Positions 4,061-60,564 of a DNA stretch of 64,000 nucleotides are shown piece by piece; positions within the stretch are counted from its first letter, which is position 1; every line of letters begins with the position of its first letter. The position numbers and the translations under genes were made by a program. The notes under the pieces are model-generated. The model made no database searches and was not told the origin of the DNA. It was given only the letters and a program-made list of their open reading frames with translations. This DNA comes from Candidatus Latescibacterota bacterium (GTDB lineage Bacteria; Latescibacterota; UBA2968; UBA8231), in contig CBDFJF010000002.1 of NCBI GenBank assembly GCA_965248265.1, positions 2,720,001 through 2,784,000 on the forward strand, in the 5' to 3' direction.

Positions 4061-4271
4061 GGACCAACAAGTCTGGATCATGAACCACTTGGGAATCGAC
4101 TGCCTGTCACTGCTCAGTTTCGAGCGCTAGCCCTTGCCGCGATGGCAGTCATAGTGCGGGGACACACGTCTGAGTAGCCTCATCGTTGTTCAGAATCACG
4201 AGAAGGTGACCATCACATCCATACAACGATTCCCGCCCCATCCCAAGCGCGCGCATAGACAAGCGGTAACA

Positions 4272-4277
4272 TGTCAA
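4272..4277 (-). promoter_or_regulatory. -35 box TTGACA in IS110 right end (half of circle-junction promoter)
   Basis: TTGACA 13 nt inside the CT core; same in copy at 44559-44564. Confidence 0.8.
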
Positions 4278-4308
4278 CACCGATCGTGGGCAAATATCGA
4301 GTCTCCGT

Positions 4309-5499
4309 TCAGTTGAGGATAGGTGTGTAGGGACGATTGTTCTTGAGGACGCTGAAGACGACGTGGAGCATCTTGTTGGCGACATGAGTGAGCGCGACGA
4401 GATGGTGCTTGCCGCGATCAATGTGTCGCTGATAGACCTGGGTGAAGAGGGGGTCATGGCTCTTGAAGACGGCGATCTCTGAGGCTTGCATGACGGCGGT
4501 GCGCAGGTAGCGACTGCCGCGCTTGGACATTCTGCCGCGACCGACCAGATCGCCGCTGTCGAACTGCTTGACGTCGAGGCCAGCGGTGGCGACGAATTTG
4601 CGAGCACCATGCTGATCCTCGGGATGAAACACGGGCAGGATCTCGGCCAGGATGGTGGGTGCCCACACGGGCCCCAGACCTGGGACGGAGCGCAGAAGGC
4701 ACTGCTGCTCGGTCACGAGATCTTGCAGTTGTTCGTCGAGTTGAGCGATCTGTTCGATGAGGAGGTTGACGCGCTCCATGACGAAGCGAATCTCCAGGGA
4801 CAAGTGCTGACTGCGATGAGTGAGGGCGAAGGAGTTTTTAGCGGAGGCCTTCAAGGCTTGTGCCTGGTCTCGTCCGAAGGCTCCCCGACTGGCGTCCTTC
4901 AACAGACGCGTCAGGCGGCGGATGTCGACGCGGGCCAGGTCCTCAGCGGTGGGAAACTGTGCCAGCACGGCTCGACTGGAGGCACCGAAGAGATCGGAGA
5001 AGTGCTGCCCGTATTCGGGAAAAGCCAAGTCGAGGAGGCTGACGAGATGACCCTTTTGGGACTTGACGGTCTGTGCGCACTGATAGCGCAATCGCGTCAG
5101 ATCGCGCAAGGACTGGACCTGTCGATCCGGGATAGCGCAGACCTTCAGATCGGTCTCCCGCAGCAGATGGGCGATCAGCAGGGCATCGGCGCTGTCGGTC
5201 TTGGTGCCACGGATGGTGATGTTGCGCCGCGCTGCCACGACCAGGGGATTGATGAGGTCAACGACATACCCTGCCTGGACCAGGGCTTCGTAGAGGACCA
5301 TCCAGTAGTGGCCGGTGGCCTCCATGCCGACGCGGATGTCGGCGGCGGGTTGTCCGGTCTCGGCCAGGCGTTGACACAACTGCTCGATGCCCTGGCGAGT
5401 CTGCTCCACGGCGAGATTACGGAAAACAGCCTGAGATTCCTCATCCAACAGCGTGGCGCGATGACTGCGTTTGGCCACATCAATTCCAAGTGTCCACAT
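4309..5499 (-). CDS. IS110 DEDD recombinase/transposase, apparently intact
   Basis: GIDVAK, MEATGHYW, KTDSADA (DEDD); SVPGLG, FDSG (putative catalytic Ser), MSKRGSRYLR; AAGGAG RBS. Confidence 0.95.
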   Translation of the reverse strand: MWTLGIDVAKRSHRATLLDEESQAVFRNLAVEQTRQGIEQLCQRLAETGQPAADIRVGMEATGHYWMVLYEALVQAGYVVDLINPLVVAARRNITIRGTKTDSADALLIAHLLRETDLKVCAIPDRQVQSLRDLTRLRYQCAQTVKSQKGHLVSLLDLAFPEYGQHFSDLFGASSRAVLAQFPTAEDLARVDIRRLTRLLKDASRGAFGRDQAQALKASAKNSFALTHRSQHLSLEIRFVMERVNLLIEQIAQLDEQLQDLVTEQQCLLRSVPGLGPVWAPTILAEILPVFHPEDQHGARKFVATAGLDVKQFDSGDLVGRGRMSKRGSRYLRTAVMQASEIAVFKSHDPLFTQVYQRHIDRGKHHLVALTHVANKMLHVVFSVLKNNRPYTPILN

Positions 5500-5514
5500 T
5501 CGGCGAGCTCCTTG

Positions 5515-5778
5515 ATCAAGTGACCGAAGCTGCCCACGATCGGGGTGACGCCAGCTGGCACATCCTCGTAGCCAGATCAGGGAACGAAGGTCCCGTCAAG
5601 CGGTAAGTGCATGTGCTGGCGCAATGGCGGTCTAAGCCAGAGGACTGAGCCTCGAGTGGAGGATAGCCAACCCAGCAGCTTCGCTGATCCAGGATCGCAT
5701 TGCTGGCATCAGGAAGCAAGCACTGAGAGTACGCAGCTGGTCGCCGTCTCGCGGGGCAGACACACCGAAGTGGTCTGT
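5515..5778 (-). ncRNA. Predicted IS110 bridge RNA
   Basis: 9-bp closing stem (5525-5533/5675-5683) encloses two loops with internal hairpins. Loop 1 has TATCCTCC and GCTTAG (target match); loop 2 has TTACCGCTTG and TACGAG (donor match). Transcript ends are estimates. Confidence 0.8.
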
Positions 5779-5782
5779 ACCC

Positions 5783-5788
5783 ATTATA
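5783..5788 (-). promoter_or_regulatory. -10 box TATAAT in IS110 left end (half of circle-junction promoter)
   Basis: CT-CG-TATAAT; joined ends give TTGACA-tgttaccgcttgtctcg(17)-TATAAT. Confidence 0.8.
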
Positions 5789-5790
5789 CG

Positions 5791-6075
5791 AGTGAGGATA
5801 AACGGCATTACATCGGTAGTCAGTCAAGCGGTTTTTGGGCTTTTCGAGGGCGTTGAGGGTCGTGCTTGTGCGTTGATCGTGGTGCGGTGAACGATGGGGC
5901 AGTGGATAGGTGCCCGGATCAGCGCCTGCGGGCGCCGCGGCAGCTGTCAGCGAGAGATGGGAACGCAGCGGTGTCCGGCCGGTCGGTCTCAGGCGGCAAA
6001 GTCGAACTCGTGTTGGGGATGAGGCCGTGGTGGAGCGATGGGCGGCGCGCGCGACGGTAGACCGACGCCCTCCAG
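5791..6075 (-). mobile_element. IS91/ISCR family-A remnant: transposase C-terminus + oriIS, split by IS110
   Basis: LEGVGLPSRAPPIAPPRPHPQHEFDFAA* then ~200 bp ending GTTTATCCTCA-CT; homologous to 39491 and 48302. Confidence 0.8.
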
Positions 6076-24781: not shown

Positions 24782-24990
24782 GATTGACTCCACCTGAAGG
24801 TCGCGAGTGCCGAGCGAGTTACGTCTGTTCCGACTCACCTTTGCAACCAATGCTGCACTGGTCTGTCAAGAAACTCGTCCAGCGGTACGCCGTCGCCACC
24901 CACCAGCAGCGTGCGATCTGGCTGGAAGGCGTCGGAACACCAATCGTGGGCAAATGTCGGGTCTAATGCGTCGGCGAAAATCCATGTGCT

Positions 24991-39762: not shown

Positions 39763-42700
39763 TTACCTCAAGAACAACAGCTTGCGTGTCTCCGTCTGCC
39801 CACCGGCCAGCAAGCGATACATGTACACGCCGCTGGCTAGATCGCGGCCGTGGGCATCGCGGCCGTCCCAGTGGACGGTGTAGGTGCCGGCTTGGTGGGG
39901 GCCCTCGACCAGGGCGGCTACTTTCTGGCCGGCCAGGTTGTAGAGGGCCAGGTCGACAGGGCCGCTGGTGGGCAGGCCAAAACGGATCACGGTGTCGCTG
40001 TTGAAGGGATTGGGATAATTCTGCGAGAGGGTATAGGTGGTGGGTAGGTCGGAGATACTCTCCGCCACCTCGACCACCGCTGTGGACGGTTTCGAGAGAT
40101 GCACCAGCCGGTATACAAAATCAACCATGACGGGAATAAATTGGGAAGCAAGTGATATGGGATAATGGCCGGCTCCTGGTAGAGGATATAGTTCATAGTG
40201 GACTTTTGCTGCCGCTATTTTATCTATCAAATCCAGGCTTGTCCGGTAGGGAACTATAGAATCCTCTGTACCGTGGATCAAAAGCGTTGGGGGGGTCCCC
40301 GGTTCGATGGGACCAGGATAAATAGGCGCATCAAAACCACCAGGATCACTGCGATCATACATCCCACCCCACAAGTCAATACAGGCTGCGGCTCCCACTG
40401 AAGCTGCATTCCCGTAGCACAAGTTGACGGCTATGGCACCCCCGGCCGAATCACCGGCAATGGTCATTTTGTTCGGGTCTACTCCATATTCGTCCTGGTT
40501 GGTTTCGAGCCAGTTCAGGGCGGTGAGTGCATCGGCCACGGCGGTATCAATTATGGCCGGATTGGCGCTGGGATTAGCCAATCTGTAGTTGATCGAAACG
40601 GCGACATAACCGCGTTGGGCGAACGCGGTGGCCATTTCCTGATATAGATCCGACTGTTTATCTCCACGACTGAATCCCCCTCCGTGGATCAACATGAGTG
40701 CAGGTCGGTTTACTTCCGTATCGCCCTCAGGTTCATATACGTCGAGCCGGAGTTGTTCCAGCTGACGGCTGGAACCTATGGCCTCGCCGAAAGGAAGATC
40801 TAGGGTGAGGTGCACCTCCGAGAACACGGGATCCACATACCTCAGGAGGCTGGTCCGGATATCGGCCCTGACGCGGACCTCTCTGCGCTCCCCCTGGGGG
40901 GTCGTGAGCACCAGGGTCGCCTCTTGCGGTCCGGCCGGCGCTTGTTGCCGATCGATGCGCACCTCGATGTATGCGGGGACGTTTGTGGTTTGCCCCTCAC
41001 GAGGGCTCACCGAAATCCAATCTTCGGAAGGCGGCTCAAGGGACCAGGAGAGGATACCGCTCCCGGCGTTGCGGAGGCTCAGAGACAGGCTGCTGATGGC
41101 CACGCCAAAATCCAGGTAGTCCTGGTCGACCGCCAGCACGGGATCGCCCACACCGGAGTCTACCAAGCGATTCAACAAGATTGAGACCGTGTTGGCGTCC
41201 TGATTCGTCACAGCCAGGTCAATGTCACCATCCCCATCGAAGTCAGCTCCGACAACCTCATATGGACCACGCCCCACAGCGTATTCCAGCTTCACACCGA
41301 AGGTCCCATCGCCGTTGTTGAGCAGCACGGACACTCTGCGGTTGACATGATCCGGCGCAACGAGGTCGTTGTCCCCATCATTGTCGAGATCCGCACTGAA
41401 AATGCCCCATCGTTCGGGGCCGTCATAGTCGACTCTAGGTGCAAAGCTGCCATCGCCATTGTTTAGCCATACCGATACAGCAGCAGAGCCAAAATGGCGC
41501 GCGGCTATGTCATGGTCTTCATCGCCATCGAAGTCCGCACTGAAAACATTCACTGGCCTATCCAACGCGTCGTACTCGACCTTGGGCGCAAAGGTCCCAT
41601 CACCATCGTTTAGGAGCACCGATACACCACCGCTGTGATTCGCCACAACCAAGTCGTTGTCCGTATCTCCATCGAGATCCGCACTAAAGACATCCAACGG
41701 AGCTTTCCCAGCGACGTAGTCGATGGGCGGTCCAAAGGTTCCATCGCCGTTGTTCAACAAGACAGAGACATTAGAGCCCGTTACCCTGGCGACGACGAGG
41801 TCGTGAATTCCATTCCCGTCGAAATCGGCACTGAATAGAGACACCGGAGCCTCGCCAGTTGCATAGTCGACTTTATCCGCAAAGGTCCCGTCGCCATTGT
41901 TCAGGAATACGGAGACGTTAGCATCGCTACCATTGGCGACTGCCAGGTCGTGATCGCCATCTGAGTCGAAATCCGCGCCGAAGACTGGATGAGAGCCTCT
42001 CCCAAGGGCATAGTCGACTTTGTCCGCAAAGGTCCCATCGCCACGGTTCATCAACACGGAGACCGTATTACTACCTGTGCTGGCGACGGCCAGGTCATGA
42101 TCACCATCGCCATCGAAATCCGCGGTTGAGAGTTCGAGGGGTACCCGTCCAACAGGATAGTCTGTCGGGAGTGCGAAAAGGGCCGGAACGAACGTAAAAC
42201 CTTTCTCGAGTTTACCCGTTTCTTGACTTCGATTGGTGATGGTGACATCCACGCTACCTAGAGCGTGCGGAGGGGTGGTAGCCTGGATTAAGAAAGGCGA
42301 CAGGCGACTTCTACGGGCGGCCTCAATACCCCCGAACGCAACCGTGGTACCCAGGTAGAAATTGCTCCCGCGTATTTCCACCTGCATGTCGCCCCGTTCC
42401 ACGCCGTGCGGGGGCGTAATCGAGGTCACGATGGGAGCGTCGTCCGGAGCGTGCACCAGGCGCAGATCGTCCAGGTAAAACGTGCCACTGACATTTCCGA
42501 GGAAGGAGATCCGTTCAAATCGATCGCCAAGGTCAAATTCGGATAGATCCATCTCGACCACCTGCCACTCCGTCCAGTTCAAGTCGATCAGCCCTTCCTG
42601 GAGAAGGTCAATGCTTCTTCCCGGTTGGACGGCGACCGCTAGGCGAGGCGAATCGGGAGGGACGACACTTTCCGGATGGAAGGCGAAACGCAGGGTCGTA

Positions 42701-42969
42701 AAGCCCAGAAGATCTCGACTATCAGAGGTCCGGAGCTGTAAGGTCCAACCCGAACTTCTTGCCTTCTCTACGCGCAATACGGCGGCGGTTTCACCTTCAA
42801 AGACGGGTCCTTCGGGAGAGATATCAACCAGTTCAATGCCCCCTAATGCTGTGGTGGTCCAGTCAGCGGCGATCTCGTCGCCCAGGATCACCAGATCCTC
42901 CTGGGTATGGGCCGGCGCATTCCAAGCGACGGCCAGTGCCAGCGCAGTATGCGGGATGATCATTTTCAT
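39763..42969 (-). CDS. Multidomain secreted protein: CBM-like + IPT/TIG + FG-GAP repeats + BACON-like + alpha/beta hydrolase + FlgD/T9SS-like tail
   Basis: ADFDGDGDHDLAV repeats, HGGGF, GDSAGG, IHGTED..VP, AGH, QNYPNPFN. Confidence 0.85.
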   Translation of the reverse strand: MKMIIPHTALALAVAWNAPAHTQEDLVILGDEIAADWTTTALGGIELVDISPEGPVFEGETAAVLRVEKARSSGWTLQLRTSDSRDLLGFTTLRFAFHPESVVPPDSPRLAVAVQPGRSIDLLQEGLIDLNWTEWQVVEMDLSEFDLGDRFERISFLGNVSGTFYLDDLRLVHAPDDAPIVTSITPPHGVERGDMQVEIRGSNFYLGTTVAFGGIEAARRSRLSPFLIQATTPPHALGSVDVTITNRSQETGKLEKGFTFVPALFALPTDYPVGRVPLELSTADFDGDGDHDLAVASTGSNTVSVLMNRGDGTFADKVDYALGRGSHPVFGADFDSDGDHDLAVANGSDANVSVFLNNGDGTFADKVDYATGEAPVSLFSADFDGNGIHDLVVARVTGSNVSVLLNNGDGTFGPPIDYVAGKAPLDVFSADLDGDTDNDLVVANHSGGVSVLLNDGDGTFAPKVEYDALDRPVNVFSADFDGDEDHDIAARHFGSAAVSVWLNNGDGSFAPRVDYDGPERWGIFSADLDNDGDNDLVAPDHVNRRVSVLLNNGDGTFGVKLEYAVGRGPYEVVGADFDGDGDIDLAVTNQDANTVSILLNRLVDSGVGDPVLAVDQDYLDFGVAISSLSLSLRNAGSGILSWSLEPPSEDWISVSPREGQTTNVPAYIEVRIDRQQAPAGPQEATLVLTTPQGERREVRVRADIRTSLLRYVDPVFSEVHLTLDLPFGEAIGSSRQLEQLRLDVYEPEGDTEVNRPALMLIHGGGFSRGDKQSDLYQEMATAFAQRGYVAVSINYRLANPSANPAIIDTAVADALTALNWLETNQDEYGVDPNKMTIAGDSAGGAIAVNLCYGNAASVGAAACIDLWGGMYDRSDPGGFDAPIYPGPIEPGTPPTLLIHGTEDSIVPYRTSLDLIDKIAAAKVHYELYPLPGAGHYPISLASQFIPVMVDFVYRLVHLSKPSTAVVEVAESISDLPTTYTLSQNYPNPFNSDTVIRFGLPTSGPVDLALYNLAGQKVAALVEGPHQAGTYTVHWDGRDAHGRDLASGVYMYRLLAGGQTETRKLLFLR

Positions 42970-43236
42970 GGTCGTTCGCCTCACCTCCAGTACAGCGGAA
43001 GATGGCTTCAGAATGTGGCTCGGTGCGCCAATGGAAGACCTACTCTAGGACCAGGATCAAGAGATCACCGTGAAGAATCGGGGATGTCAGCCTCGGTTGC
43101 CGTCTGACAATGGCTCCGTTTCGCCAGCGTTTCTCGCACGATGGGCTACCATGAACGCGACAGCAGCGATGGAAAACGAGATGAGACTGCCGCCGATTTC
43201 CGCGGACCCCCAAGGCTCTCGCAAGAACAAGCGACT

Positions 43237-43259
43237 AGTGAGGATAAACAGCATTACAT
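43237..43259 (-). mobile_element. Tiny family-A oriIS fragment
   Basis: AGTGAGGATAAACAGCATTACAT, one mismatch to 5791-5813. Confidence 0.7.
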
Positions 43260-43382
43260 ACTCTTAGGCGCAAACAAAGAGGGCTTCTCTTTCAGATATT
43301 CGGAGGTGTCCCATAAGACCCTCAAAGACGTGAGCACCACGTCTGCATCTGAAAAGGAGAAGCCCGTAAGAAATCTACTAAG

Positions 43383-44527
43383 ATGACTTCGGCTGTCCAA
43401 CTCGATCAGGTCCTCGATATCTGTGTCGATGTCAGCAAGAGCAAACTCAATGTCTACTTCGAGATGGGCGATCAGACCGTCGATGACGAGTGGCCCAATA
43501 CGACCCGGCAGATCGAGAAGAAGCTGCGAGCCTGTGGGCGCTTGGCGAGAGAGCACGGCTTCAAATCACTGCGAGTCATCTGCGAGCCTTCAGGCGGATA
43601 CCAGGACAAGCTGTTGCGCACAGCACGACGACTCGGTCACCTGACGGCCTACGTCAACGGCGAGGCGGTTGCCAAATTTCGTGTCGTCGAGACCAATGAC
43701 GGCGGCAAGACGGATCTCAAAGACCCGCACATCATCAATACGCTGGCGCGGCTCAATAAAGTCCTCCGGCATCGAGATCTACCTGAAGAGTATGAGCTGC
43801 TGCGCAAATGCGGCGTCCTCTATGAGAGGGCAGACCGAGCTCTCATGGCGGTGCGCTGCCGACTGCACCGCGTGCTGATGGAGCTGTATTGCGACTTCTC
43901 CTTCACCAAGAGCTTTCTCTACAGCACCTCGGGGCGCGCCTTGATCAGCAGGGGAGCCTTCGGACGAGGCCAGGCACAGGCCTTGAAGGCCTCCGCTAAA
44001 GCCTCCTTCGCGCTCACTCATCGCAGTCGGCACTTGTCCCTGGAGATTCGCTTCGTCATGGAGCGCGTCAACCTCCTCATCGAGCAGATCGTGCAACTCG
44101 ACGAACACCTGCAAGATCTCATGACCGAACAGCAGAGCCTTCTGCGGTCCGTCCCAGGTCTCGGGCCGTGTGGGCACCGACCATCCTGGCCGAGATCCTG
44201 CCTGTGTTTCATCCCGAGGATCAGCATGGCGCTCGCAAGTTCGTCGCCACCGCTGGCCTCGACGTCAAGCAGTTCGACAGTGGCGATGTGGAGGGTCGCG
44301 GCAGAATGTCCAAGCGCGGCAGCCGCTACCTGCGCACCGCCGTCATGCAGGCCTCAGAGATCGCCGTCTTCAAGAGTCACGACCCGCTCTTCACCCAGGT
44401 CTATCAGCGACACATTGATCGCGGCAAGCACCACCTCGTCGCTCTCACCCACGTCGCCAACAAGATGCTCCACGTCGTCTTCAGTGTCCTCAAGAACAAC
44501 CGTCCCTACACACCTATCCTCAACTGA
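43383..44527 (+). pseudogene. Chimeric, frameshifted IS110 transposase
   Basis: N-terminal DEDD domain of a second family (VDVSK, CEPSGGY, KTDLKD) fused near 43946 to the C-terminal half of the 4309-5499 type; -1 frameshift near 44170. Confidence 0.85.
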
Positions 44528-44579
44528 ACGGAGACCAGATATTTGCCCACGACTGGTGTTGACATGTTACCGCTTGTCT
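44528..44579 (+). mobile_element. IS110 right end with -35 box and CT core
   Basis: GGTGTTGACATGTTACCGCTTGT-CT identical to the reverse complement of 4257-4281. Confidence 0.9.
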
Positions 44580-44998
44580 ATACGTCCGGGCAGGACAGTA
44601 ACAGAGCGAGGTTGGTGATCGTGCGAGACAACAAGATGAGGTAGCGTGTGCGAGCAGGCATTGTCGTCTTCCTTTCGACCTGATTGATGCGATTCCGCCG
44701 TCGCCTGGCGCGCACTCAATGCAATGGTGCTCTTTCGCGCGCCAAGCGCTCTGCCGAAAAGCATGCAACCAGCAGAAACTAAACAGAAAACTATGGAACG
44801 AATAGTGGGGTTGGCTCTTAGACGCGCAGCAAAGGCTACGGCGGAGACTTGCCCGACGATCTGCCTCCGAAGCCGCATGTGGGTCCGGATCCGATGATCG
44901 TACGGCCTGTGCGAGTGAATCCGCCTTGACACAGTGCCCATAATGGTCCTTCATAGTGTAGTCGGTGCGAATGTTTCCCGAACGAGGGTTTTCCGACC

Positions 44999-48633: not shown

Positions 48634-49551
48634 TTGCAGGCCCAAAACACAGACCTTCCGCCCGGCGGTAATAGCAGTGCCCCCACGGCCGCTTCCGTCG
48701 GAGTGACGCCGACCCGCGATCCGGCCGTGGCCGGCGAGCAGATGCGCCGGCACGGTTTCTGCATCATAGAAGGCGTCCTTCCGCCCTCTGCCATACCGGC
48801 CCTGAGGGAGAGCGCCGAACGCACCGCGATGGCGCACGACGACTGGCACCTCGACGGTTCCAAGGCGACATGGCACGTGGGGAGCGTGCTCACCTACGAC
48901 CAGACGATGGCCGCCTGGATCGGCGAGAGCCGCGTGCTCGACGTCGTCGAAGAGGCCTTCGCCACGGCCGAGATCCAGATCAGCTATACCACGCTGCAGG
49001 TCAACAAGCCGCACTGCCAGCAGCAGATCTGGCACGCGGATGGACACCTGGCGCAAACGGAACAGTACCCGCCGCCGCACGAGGCGCTGCGCCGTCCCGC
49101 GCACATCAACGCGCTCTACATGCTGAGCGACTTCACGGTTGCCAACGGCGGGACCTGGATGGTGCCCGGCTCGCACGCGCGGCCGGCTTCTGAAGATCCG
49201 TGCCGAGCGTGGTCGACCGAAGCCCAGTACTCGCCTTACCCGGAGGCCGTCCACGCGACCGCGGCCGCCGGCTGCGTGTGCGTGCTCGACTGCCGATTGT
49301 GGCACTGCATGCCGCCGAACCTGACGGACGCGGCGCGGGTCATGGTCAACGTGCGCTATGCACCGAGCCGGGTGCCCATCGAGCTACTGGTGAATCGGGG
49401 TGCCGGCCAGCCCCCGTGGCCGCCCATGCCGCAGGCAGTGTACGAGGCGCTTCCCTCCAGGTTGAAGCCGCTGTACGCGCACGCCCCGCTTCCTCCTCCG
49501 CCACCTTATACGCACGAGTTGGGCCTGTTCCTGAACGACAAACGGGTCTAG
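48634..49551 (+). CDS. PhyH family dioxygenase (start uncertain)
   Basis: RHGFCIIEGVL, WHADG, LSDFTVANGGTWMVPGSH, RLWH. Confidence 0.85.
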   Translation: MQAQNTDLPPGGNSSAPTAASVGVTPTRDPAVAGEQMRRHGFCIIEGVLPPSAIPALRESAERTAMAHDDWHLDGSKATWHVGSVLTYDQTMAAWIGESRVLDVVEEAFATAEIQISYTTLQVNKPHCQQQIWHADGHLAQTEQYPPPHEALRRPAHINALYMLSDFTVANGGTWMVPGSHARPASEDPCRAWSTEAQYSPYPEAVHATAAAGCVCVLDCRLWHCMPPNLTDAARVMVNVRYAPSRVPIELLVNRGAGQPPWPPMPQAVYEALPSRLKPLYAHAPLPPPPPYTHELGLFLNDKRV

Positions 49552-49629
49552 CGCGGCGTCCTGGAAGCAGGATCGTTAACGATCAAAGCCAGAGCCTTAG
49601 TCTGGAACACTTCATGGGAGATCCGAATG

Positions 49630-49679
49630 ACCCTCGCAGGGCCAGACCTACCCGAAGTGGTCCGCACCTATTATACGAG
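49630..49679 (-). mobile_element. Left-end remnant of a sibling IS110 element
   Basis: CT-CGTATAAT-AGGTGCGGACCACTTCGG..GTCTG.CCC.GCGAG parallels 5748-5792. Confidence 0.8.
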
Positions 49680-49839
49680 GACAAATAAGTGGCGTTATGG
49701 TGAGTTTAGATCCGTGTGGGCAGTGGTGTCGAGCGAATCAATGAATCTTTTTGAACGGCGGAATGCGGGGTTGAGGCCATCGACGGGCATTCCGAAGGAG
49801 AAGAATCCAGGGCTGAGCGGTGGTTTTTCCCGTTTTTCG
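49678..49839 (-). mobile_element. IS91 family-B oriIS remnant, cut at its CT by IS110
   Basis: Matches 60168 onward; the terminal ATAC is replaced by the IS110 left end. Confidence 0.8.
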
Positions 49840-55528: not shown

Positions 55529-55844
55529 GCTTAGTGGTTATAAGGTAGGTTATCGTTAGTCGATCCGGTGTTGTTTTTTCGCTTTTTTCGTGTTGATGGC
55601 GGTCGCTTTGGGTTGACGGTCTTCGAGTGAGCACTTGAGGCTGCGAATAGGGCCGGAGGGGAGTGGCTGTGAACGAAGATGGGATTCACAGCGATGGATC
55701 GGGACACAGCGGTGCCGTTGCTGCGACGGCGAATCGATCTCAGGCGGCGAAATCCAGCTCAGCTTGGGGATTGGGGCGTGCCGGGGCGATCGGCGGTGCC
55801 CGTGATGGCAGGCCGACGCCCTCCAGATAACGAACAATAGAACG
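55529..55844 (-). mobile_element. IS91 family-C oriIS remnant, copy 1
   Basis: SIVRYLEGVGLPSRAPPIAPARPNPQAELDFAA* + 3' region ending TTATAACCACTAAGC; direct repeat of 57394-57710. Confidence 0.85.
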
Positions 55845-57393: not shown

Positions 57394-57849
57394 GCTTAGT
57401 GGTTATAAAGTAGGTTATCGTTAGTCGATCCGGTGTTGTTTTTTCGCTTTTTTCGTGGTTGATGGCGGTCGCTTTGGGTTGACGGTCTTCGAGTGAGCAC
57501 TTGAGGCTGCGAATAGGGCCGGAGGGGAGTGGTTGTGAACGAAGATGGGATTCCCAGCGATGGATCGGGACACAGCGGTGCCGTTGCTGCGACGGCGAAT
57601 CGCTCTCAGGTGGCGAAATCCAGCTCAGCTTGGGGATTGGGGCGTGCCGGGGCGATCGGCGGTGCCCGTGATGACAGGCCGACGCCCTCCAGATAACGAA
57701 CAATAGAACGGGGCTCGGTAAGGGCCGCGACGACGGAGACCGGTCTGATGACCGGTCTCTTGGAGTTTGCCTACGGCAAACTCCCCTTCATTGCGGCCGC
57801 CGCAGGCCAGGCATACGGTAACGTCCACGCGAAACATGCAGCAACCGGG
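57394..57849 (-). mobile_element. IS91 family-C remnant, copy 2 (longer transposase stub)
   Basis: FRVDVTVCLACGGR..MK[insert]VVAALTEPRSIVRYLEG...; ori end followed by GTTC. Confidence 0.85.
57735..57785. repeat. 51-bp double-hairpin insertion
   Basis: GAGACCGGTC-TGAT-GACCGGTCTC and GGAGTTTGCC-TAC-GGCAAACTCC between the MK and VV codons. Confidence 0.85.
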
Positions 57850-59163
57850 TGCAGCAACCGGGCTGATAGGTAACAGTCTAAACCGGGTTGATGGGTGACA
57901 CTATTGTTTTGATTGAATTCACTCCCGTACGATCATGTCCCTCTCGTCGACGGTGGCTAGGAGGACGGTGTTGAAGTAGATGGCCCAGACGCCGTCGTCG
58001 ATCTCCTCGAGACCGATGTCGAGATGCTTGAGAGACTGAGCGATGAAGATGAGCTTGTGGCCGAGGCGTATGGTCCCGGCTCGGGTGACGTGCTTGATGA
58101 CGAAGTGACCGGGGTACTCAATGGTCGGCATGCGGCCGGGATAGGGCCGGGGTGATGGGTGGTACCGGGAGCCAGGAGTCTTGCCGTTGAGGGCGTCATG
58201 GGGACGCTCGTCGTTGTAGAGCTGTCGGAAGCGCTGGAAGGATCGCTGCTGGGCGGCCTTGTTGGCGGCGGGTGGCCGACAGGTAGCGGCCTTCAAGGTG
58301 CGATGCATGCGTTCGTGGGCGCCATTTTCCTGCGGCGATGCCGGGCGGATCCGCTGGTGCACGATGCCGAGCCTCATCCACCAAACGTTGAGTCGGCATA
58401 GCCCATGCAATCCTCTGGAAGCAAAGGGAACGCCGTTGTCGGTGCGAATGGCCTGAGGCAGGCCGAATTCGCGGAAGGCTCTCTCGAAGACCGGACGCGC
58501 ATGCAAGGTCTTGATGTCGGGCAGGGCGCGGCAGGTCAGGAGATAGCGAGTGTGCTGATCGCTGATGGTGAGAGGGAAACACCAAACTCCGTTCTTGGTA
58601 GGAAATTGGCCTTTGAAGTCGGCCGTCCACAGATCGTTGGGGTTGTCGGTGGTCGGCGGCACGGCTCCGGGGTGCTGACGTGGGCGTCGTCGTCGTCGCT
58701 TCTTCACCAGGCCTTCGCGCACCAGCAGATCGCCTGCCGTACTGACCGCCGGCCAGGAGCAGATGTGCGGATGTCGAGGCGCCAGCCAGTCCAACAGTTT
58801 GTTCGGTCCCCAATCGGGGTGCCGTGTGCGCGCTCCGAGAATGAGCTCGGCAATCTCTGGCGCCATGCGATGCGGACAGGTGTGGGGCGCGTGACTGCGG
58901 TCCTGTAACCCGGGCACCCCCTCTTCGGCGTGCCGCTGAAGCCACTTGTATCCGGTTTTGCGGCTGATCCCGTATCGCTCGCACAGCTCCGCTCTCGAGT
59001 AGTGCCCGCGCTGATCGTCGGCGATAAATCGCTTACGTTGTTCCATGGGTGCTGTCTCCATCCAGGGCATCGACCAACCTCCCAATTGGGGTTGGTCAAA
59101 AAGTAGAAGGAGTGTCACCCATCAACCCGGTCAGATGTGTTACCAATCTACCCGGTTTGTACC
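57850..59163 (-). mobile_element. IS481-family element (outer limits approximate)
   Basis: Perfect 21-bp inverted repeat 57882-57902 / 59111-59131 within longer imperfect IRs. Confidence 0.85.
57919..59070 (-). CDS. IS481-family DDE transposase
   Basis: MPW.E, YGISRKTGYKW, WTADFKG, IRTDNGVPF, PQENGAHERMHRTLK, YNDERPH. Confidence 0.95.
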   Translation of the reverse strand: MPWMETAPMEQRKRFIADDQRGHYSRAELCERYGISRKTGYKWLQRHAEEGVPGLQDRSHAPHTCPHRMAPEIAELILGARTRHPDWGPNKLLDWLAPRHPHICSWPAVSTAGDLLVREGLVKKRRRRRPRQHPGAVPPTTDNPNDLWTADFKGQFPTKNGVWCFPLTISDQHTRYLLTCRALPDIKTLHARPVFERAFREFGLPQAIRTDNGVPFASRGLHGLCRLNVWWMRLGIVHQRIRPASPQENGAHERMHRTLKAATCRPPAANKAAQQRSFQRFRQLYNDERPHDALNGKTPGSRYHPSPRPYPGRMPTIEYPGHFVIKHVTRAGTIRLGHKLIFIAQSLKHLDIGLEEIDDGVWAIYFNTVLLATVDERDMIVRE

Positions 59164-60062: not shown

Positions 60063-60163
60063 GGCGGTCTCCGGCGTCAGCTCAGGTCGGCAAGGACGCG
60101 CGCGAAGAGGTGCGGTTGGATCTCAGGGCGCCGGTCTCTTCGTGCAGCTTCCTGGCCGCGGGA

Positions 60164-60310
60164 GTATAGGACAAATAAGTGGCGTTATGGTGAGTTTAGA
60201 TCCGTGGGGGCCGTGGTGTCGAGCGAATCATGAATCTTTTTTTGAACGGCGGAAGGGGGGGTGGCCATCGACGGGCATTGCGAAGGAGAGGAATCCAGAG
60301 CTGAGCCTGT
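60164..60310 (-). mobile_element. IS91 family-B oriIS remnant with intact end
   Basis: Minus strand ends CACTTATTTGTCCTATAC, like the CCTATAC terminus of ISCR/IS1294 oriIS. Confidence 0.8.
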
Positions 60311-60564
60311 TTTGCACGGTTTTCAAACCGTTCGAGTGCCTTGATGAAGCAGTGGAGCTGTATCGGCACTGGTTGCCGTCGGCGGCAGCGGCGGAATAGA
60401 GCTCAGTAGCAAGGAGAACACGGATGAATGACGGGCAGGGCACCCGTTCGACCTTACGGGGCACGCGGTGCCGCTCGCCGATGACCGACGACTCCGCTCT
60501 CTGACGCGTAGCTTCGGCCCGTCAAACATGCTCAGTCGCTTTCAAGTGTCGGGCTGCATTTGCC

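Follow-up and report, generated by a model that had tools for sequence, protein, structure and literature searches.

The locus described here lies in a window, i.e. the whole stretch of 64,000 nt that was analysed, of a Candidatus Latescibacterota genome, and all searches of the genome covered its 7.32 Mb in two contigs (C1 and C2; coordinates without a contig prefix are those of the window). A PhyH gene with a Pfam match occupies 48634-49551 (stop codon 49549-49551) and is followed by an 80-nt spacer (49552-49631), by a stub that corresponds to nt 1-46 of an IS110-family left end (LE; 49632-49677, minus strand), by a CT dinucleotide (49678-49679, minus strand) and by a putative IS91-family end of the oriIS type, which we denote B-type (49680-49838, minus strand). 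Read on the minus strand, positions 49680-49689 are CTTATTTGTC, 49678-49679 are CT and 49670-49677 are CGTATAAT; the locus as a whole reads ...CACTTATTTGTC-CT-CGTATAATAGGTGCGGACCACTTCGGGTAGGTCTGGCCCTGCGAGG, with unrelated sequence after it. The 46-nt stub contains the CGTATAAT terminus, with its -10-like TATAAT, and the first hairpin, and breaks off before the predicted bridge-RNA loops, so that it has neither these loops nor a recombinase gene.

The junction was checked on contigs of the runs X21 and X23, which come from one sample, probably the source of the assembly (runs X1 and X2 do not reach the junction). In both runs a 1195-nt contig spans 48513-49707 with 0 differences, so that the junction is not an assembly artefact. 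No joint or alternative allele was present at 49632 or 49679 in the X21 and X23 contigs.

A blastn search with 49540-49680 against the 7.3-Mb genome gave 89.8% identity over 49 nt (E 1.2e-10) at C2:2788234-2788281, together with weaker matches to three other IS110 left ends. The best match belongs to an intact element, hereafter the sibling, which spans C2:2786745-2788278, 2.8 kb past the end of the window, and whose LE is 90% identical to the stub. Direct alignment of 49632-49677 with the sibling LE scored 67 (46 of 47 columns aligned, 4 substitutions and 1 gap), compared with a score of 47 for the LE of the IS110 element inside the window (the main element, 4249-5790), and blastn-short gave 94% identity to the sibling LE over 36-37 nt (E 5e-9 and 8e-10). 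The stub hairpin, GGGTAGGTCTG, is likewise of the sibling type and not of the main type. The junction falls exactly on the CT that is used, with the same CT-CGTATAAT boundary, by the three intact copies in the genome (main, a second identical copy termed copy2, and sibling), and the likeness of these few nucleotides to IS110 is thus not a matter of chance.

These results bear on an earlier note made from the sequence alone, which had described 49552-49700 as a diverged IS110 left end at the equivalent CT of an IS91-type end. The left end, its position on the CT and its greater closeness to a sibling than to the main element were all borne out, but the extent was too generous, since only 49632-49679 are IS110-derived and 49552-49631 are unique. 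When the latter were aligned as a diverged or internally deleted LE, shuffled sequences reached the score in 24 of 300 cases against the main element and in 267 of 300 against the sibling, and this reading was rejected. The spacer was also rejected as a terIS or another repeat, as the genome search at E 1e-3 gave only the spacer itself; it marks the inner breakpoint of the deletion that we propose below.

Two further candidates were tried at this locus. The PhyH unit could have been an insertion into an IS110 element; no recombinase match or end fragment was found left of 48306, and the idea was dropped. A 29-nt intergenic piece at 24936-24964 resembles the interior of an IS110 right end (ATTTGCCCACGATTGG.GTT, E 0.02) and may be a relic or a chance match; it is too distant and too short to be relevant to the question of the PhyH unit. 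Rfam at gathering thresholds returned 0 families in the whole window.

The sequence into which the stub is joined belongs to a class of ends that is abundant in this genome. The Y2_Tnp domain of IS91-family transposases has 16 genome matches, and in four long Y2 frames (408-501 aa) an end motif lies 154-234 nt past the stop, the ends concerned being of types A, A3, D and G. The motif consists of a palindrome, (G)ATAA-N5-8-TTAT(C), 6-7 variable nt and then CTA(T/A)NC.., and subterminal palindromes on the end-motif side of the gene are described for IS91 oriIS regions in the part of PMC13181058 that concerns them. An nhmmer profile of the motif found 74 places in the genome, in many subfamilies. 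The palindrome stands 6-7 nt from the CT in the listed ends, including ATAAGTGGCGTTAT at 49685-49698, and the variable block is followed by CTA(T/A)NC(G/A)N, a subfamily-specific stretch of ~8 nt without CTTG or GTTC, at which the boundary between element and flank is not fixed. As the CT of IS110 is the CT of this CTA(T/A), IS110 insertion separates the palindrome from the terminal ~8 nt.

The B-type end at 49680-49838 (palindrome ATAA-N6-TTAT, nhmmer E 6.7e-6) supplies the left target CTTATTTGTC and has lost the last 8 nt past the CT, which read ATACTC.. in intact copies. Such an intact, unoccupied copy is present in the window at 60162-60324 (minus strand), with CTTATTTGTC-CT-ATACTC at 60160-60179 and the CT at 60168-60169, and the genome holds six B-type copies of 79-100% identity. 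None of the six adjoins a Y2 match, so that B-type ends were not found downstream of a Y2 gene; their assignment to the IS91 family relies on homology of the end motif, namely the shared end profile and the resemblance to the D type, which comes with an attached, intact transposase gene, and B-type sequences are therefore best taken as probable IS91-family ends. A search for B-type ends in 40 other genomes gave 0 hits at E 1e-5; many of these genomes are incomplete, and this count is not evidence of absence.

IS91-type ends are locally dense. The window has ten of them, all (+), at 5791, 8424, 21913, 39491, 43236, 48297, 49678, 55525, 57387 and 60159; the genes that follow them are ordinary ones for metabolism or surface proteins, and none of the ten ends has a Y2 transposase gene, nor was a Y2 transposase detected in the window among the 30 larger ORFs compared with Pfam or by a genome-wide PF04986 search. 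About 23 of about 74 genome ends (the nhmmer list plus one B-type copy found only by DNA search) form a head-to-tail array in the 110 kb of C2:2.689-2.801 Mb, which has a full IS91 copy on either side, each with its end pointing inward. Other repeats occur in the same region. An IS481-family element (57856-59157, with rve, HTH and LZ_Tnp_IS481 domains, a gene at 57919-59118 on the minus strand and 47-nt inverted repeats at 57856-57902 and 59111-59157) lies just past the second of two 95%-identical 271-nt A2-type segments (55574-55844 and 57440-57710), and a gene for a large secreted FG-GAP/esterase protein with a Por_Secre_tail sorting domain (39763-42984) contains periodic repeats of 144-147 nt, which are the repeat families D2, D4 and D5.

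The main IS110 element (4249-5790, minus strand) was delimited by Pfam matches, junctions and RNA fold; it comprises a recombinase gene (4309-5499; PF01548 at 3.6e-39 and PF02371 at 2.6e-16) and a left-end bridge-RNA region (5500-5790), has CT core copies at 4247-4248 and 5791-5792, and sits in an A-type IS91 end (5793-6075). By tblastn with the window recombinase we found two identical copies, 4309-5499 itself and C2:2703973-2705160 (copy2), one intact sibling of 89% amino acid identity (C2:2786798-2787985) and several fragments; a broken third copy lies at C2:2653095 (sib3). The sibling recombinase is a 396-aa frame whose D, E, D and D residues and SG align to the IS621 and ISCro4 chains, the catalytic residues being taken as named in the pertinent section of PMC11208158. 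A DEDD RuvC-like domain and a Tnp domain with SG are thus present in main and sibling; the stub has no gene. All three intact copies start with CGTATAAT and end with ..TTGACATGTTACCGCTTGT, and CT flanks them on both sides, before CGTATAAT and after ..ACCGCTTGT. In the wider set of compared elements, which includes 12 fetched loci, CT is also found in all except one locus (L026), which reads CC. As expected for IS110, the elements have no terminal inverted repeats and carry the same core at both junctions, of which the stub retains the left one.

The genome has six LE junctions, each of them inside an IS91-type end. This end is of type A for main, A2 for copy2, C for the sibling and B for the window stub; for sib3 it is F-like, and for a second stub (C2:2307792) it is E-like and degenerate. 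Four more LE junctions from three related sources are also in IS91-type ends, an A-like end for L102/L103 (77% amino acid identity) and E-like and other IS91-like ends for L012/L016 and L018 in two related genomes; more distant relatives (67% identity or less) use unrelated sequences as sites. The second stub (C2:2307756-2307792) comprises ~37-45 nt of LE at ..CTATTCTTC-CA-CGTATAAT; it is of similar length to the window stub, and the two breakpoints do not look identical. A further side product is a chimeric IS110 gene in the window (43383-44618, plus strand; feature 43236-44579). Its right end and its residues 278-396 match the main element at 96-98%, compared with an identity of only 42% for the N-terminal part, which is preceded by a different, short upstream region with a 28-nt A-type end fragment in front. 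The right end of this gene adjoins CT-ATACGT, the right half of a D-type end.

To compare the non-coding left ends, twelve relatives of 48-77% amino acid identity were taken from public genomes and metagenomes, and 11 of them were aligned with main, sibling and sib3. The consensus that RNAalifold gave for these 14 sequences has an outer stem and two internal loops; of its 39 pairs, 17 show compensatory changes. On this model the LE is predicted to encode an RNA with a target-binding and a donor-binding loop: the second loop (TTACCGCTTGA.. / ..CTACGAGG) agrees with the ends of the element itself, as a donor loop would, and the first loop changes along with the flanking sequence. A right flank is readable for 15 elements, and in these CT and the next 3-5 nt of that flank are complementary to the bases that precede a conserved AGAC; in most elements the 5′ loop pairs with the left flank beside CT.

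The guides so read are TATCCTCCA-CT and GCTTAG for the main element, and TATTCGTGC-CT and CGGATAG for the sibling. Between main and sibling, 8 of 14 positions of the target guides are different, against 39 of 281 positions elsewhere in the LE (Fisher p 3e-4), and the donor loop differs by 1 nt outside its terminal loop. Over the genome as a whole, a single conserved donor loop and scaffold is combined with three variants of the guides. The right guides fit their sites, GCTTAG of main with CTAAGC at copy2 and CGGATAG of sib3 with CTATCCG. Since main and sibling carry different target guides on a shared donor loop, the two lineages would address different IS91-end subfamilies. In this respect the earlier note did well: it had foreseen that BLAST would find a full sibling and that its target loop would be re-programmed, and it had judged the stub too short for a guide to be read, its own guides being indeed lost. 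The specific guides that it proposed, about TATTTGTC and about GTATAG, differ from those observed, and that pair was not found in the genome. Neither of the outcomes that would have contradicted it, guides equal to those of the first element or targets unrelated to IS91-type ends, was encountered.

On the left side, pairing of the guide with the occupied site requires a 1-nt bulge in both main and sibling. The left guide loop has 12 nt in these two elements compared with 11 in most orthologues, which gives an apparent register shift of 1 nt, the bulged base being position -2 from the core in the 12-nt loop. For the main element, the bulge register yields 8/8 pairing at its own site and 12 perfect 13-mers in the genome (ATCCTCA-CT-AAGC); the left flank resembles an IS91 end in every one of these, and the nhmmer profile flags 10. 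The straight register yields no perfect site, and the 42 hits that it gives with up to 2 mismatches all lie away from ends. The bulge register thus appears, from this distribution of sites, to be real for the main element and not ad hoc. The 12 perfect sites (C2:1134277-1156235, 1839012, 2411987, 2422548 and 2431633) are all unoccupied, and the two main copies sit in ends that match less well.

In the bulge register, the sibling guide pairs with the B-type end at 7/8 positions on the left and 3/4 on the right, and 7/8 left pairing with this guide was reached by only 5 of 71 scored ends, 4 of which are B-type; on those four the main guide pairs 3/8 on three and 5/8 on the fourth (C2:1906358). 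Without the bulge, the sibling guide pairs only 2/8 with the left target of the B-type end, and its guides instead match 13/13 at a G'-type IS91 end (C1:1110833, TCGTGC-CT-ATCCG) and G-type ends with 2 mismatches. The no-bulge register fits most relatives (sib3, L012/L016, L018, L024, L025, L107, L108 and L109), and for the sibling the two registers are not separable by sequence alone. The suggestion that the sibling tracks another IS91 family consequently stands in part: its predicted targets are IS91-end subfamilies other than ATCCTCA, but tracking of the B family in particular needs a bulge and mismatches, while a perfect match without a bulge is found elsewhere.

The present site of the sibling adds a complication, because its flanks are hybrid. 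The left target is C-type, and the right flank is AACCAT, the right half typical of G-type ends, instead of the ATACTC of the unoccupied C-type copy. In C2:2786743-2788400, the sibling is bordered by a truncated C-type end of ~45 nt on its left side and by CT-AACCATCG on its right side, and a G-type end (TATCGTGC-CT-AACCATGC) follows ~105 nt beyond the sibling. Such flanks suggest a past rearrangement, possibly recombination between two former copies, and the present site is therefore not clean evidence of the specificity of the sibling.

Taken together, these data make it likely that 49632-49679 is the decayed left junction of a sibling-lineage IS110 element that inserted in a B-type IS91 end and was later removed by a deletion. 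Because the copies start with CGTATAAT and end with ..TTGACATGTTACCGCTTGT, the junction of an excised circle, as read from these ends, would be TTGACA-N17-TATAAT, and the joined right and left ends would thereby form a promoter that drives bridge RNA and recombinase; IS110 circles are described as rebuilding a promoter in this way in the relevant part of PMC11208158. The donor loop (TTACCGCTTGA.. and ..CTACGAGG) would hold the RE-CT-LE junction of the circle (RE, right end), the target loop would pair with both sides of the CT of an IS91 end, between subterminal palindrome and terminus, and the element would be inserted by strand exchange at CT. The insertion step would follow the established bridge-RNA mechanism as set out in the main lines of PMC11208160 and PMC11208158. 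A later, unrelated deletion would have taken everything from nt 47 of the LE through the right end, along with the last 8 nt of the IS91 end, and would have fused the remaining stub to the 3′ flank of the PhyH gene. We infer the deletion, and with it the order of events, as the pre-deletion allele was not seen in the contigs.

The stub holds no guides, so those of its parent are not readable, and both a parent with the sibling guides in the bulge register and a parent with an exactly matched, since lost guide would be compatible with it. The latter is a serious rival, which we consider possible but distinctly less probable: a third, lost variant with guides exactly matching B and C ends (about TTT(G/A)TC-CT and GTATAG) would be the source of the stub and also of the C-type flank to the left of the sibling, and, as part of the same tentative reading, the surviving sibling would be aimed at G-type ends and its hybrid flanks would have arisen by homologous recombination between the two variants. 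It gains from the no-bulge matches of the sibling, 13/13 at the G'-type end and 2 mismatches at G-type ends, from the closest relatives, which pair without a bulge, and from the right flank of the sibling, AACCAT, which is a G-type right half with a G-type end ~105 nt from the left end of the sibling. A right guide of the proposed kind does exist in the clade, as L018, from a related genome, carries CGTATAG; however, no copy with such a left guide was present in the genome or among the fetched relatives examined, and the main element shows that the 1-nt bulge register is used in the clade.

Two other histories fit the junction much less well. An off-target insertion of a main-lineage element (TATCCTCCA-CT, GCTTAG) into the B-type end is very unlikely; imperfect sites are evidently tolerated, since 1 to 3 guide positions are mismatched in the A-type and A2-type ends that the two identical copies occupy, but the main guide pairs only 3/8 on the left and 2/4 on the right with the B-type end, and the hairpin GGGTAGGTCTG and the 46 nt in general lean to the sibling lineage, and it is this combination of a bad guide match with a sibling-like hairpin that makes the explanation fit poorly. 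We give still less credence to the reverse order, in which a B-type IS91 transposed beside or into a pre-existing IS110 left end. The head-to-tail density of IS91-type ends in this region would make such an arrival conceivable, yet an arriving IS91 would carry a complete terminus, whereas this end is missing its terminus (ATACTC..) exactly from the CT of IS110 onward, and no remainder of IS110 was found beyond the neighbouring unit. Thus insertion of a sibling-lineage element followed by deletion is the explanation that we prefer. The stub itself is an ordinary decay product, and the relic is real but small, within a modestly interesting system.

The wider picture can be drawn only tentatively: an IS110 clade in this bacterial family may be specialised on IS91 oriIS ends, with guides that diversify along with the end subfamilies and include a bulged register, and the stub could then be the fossil of a vanished variant. 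If this is true, insertion between palindrome and terminus would either disable the IS91 end or let IS110 ride inside the IS91 element, an RNA-guided relationship of a parasite with a parasite. Targeting of oriIS could in that case alter the mobility of elements of the IS91/ISCR type, which elsewhere spread resistance genes. Since IS110 bridge recombinases are under development as programmable tools for genome insertion, natural cases of guide drift and re-aiming are useful, and the dozens of near-cognate IS91-type ends in this genome, few of them occupied, form a natural test set for tolerance of mismatches and bulges, which includes the apparent bulge case (12-nt left loop; 12 perfect sites and none in the other register).

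Compared with the IS621/IS110 bridge-RNA systems, as these are characterised in the portions of PMC11208160 and PMC11208158 concerned with their architecture, the elements described here share the DEDD RuvC-like domain and the Tnp domain with SG, the CT core at both junctions, the non-coding left end upstream of the gene with two internal loops, and the circle-junction promoter (loops and promoter being predicted here); agreement of target motifs with guides is likewise reported for IS110 elements in PMC11208160. Unlike in IS621, the protein is distant (phmmer E 5.5e-18) and longer (396 compared with 326 aa), and the target would be the end of another transposon and not the REP sequence given for IS621. 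A closer parallel for the guide change is the pair ISEc11 and ISXne4, for which the relevant part of PMC11187229 describes natural re-direction by replaced target-matching parts of the seekRNA. In both cases close relatives (72% amino acid identity there, 89% here) keep the RNA scaffold and donor recognition, differ in short target-matching stretches and are found in different sequences. The cases differ in that ISEc11 and ISXne4, by the same account, belong to the IS1111 type, in which the RNA lies downstream of the gene, and come from different hosts, whereas ours are IS110-type paralogues in one genome, whose targets are variants of a single class of site, the IS91-type ends. The term 'IS91' occurs 0 times in PMC11187229, and the literature searched gave no IS110 element that targets IS91 oriIS ends, although such elements may be listed in the target tables that supplement Durrant et al. 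and Siddiquee et al. Natural reprogramming of bridge or seekRNA guides is thus already known, and the IS91-end target class is the part that was not found in print. Ends of other transposons are reportedly targeted within the same superfamily by IS4321/IS5075. The present system resembles an IS1111-subgroup case of this kind, in which a site-specific IS with a DEDD transposase lands on the conserved end of a mobile element or on another repeated, structured site; the prey of that case is the inverted repeats of Tn3-family elements, and here it would be the oriIS-type end of Y2 (HUH) rolling-circle elements.
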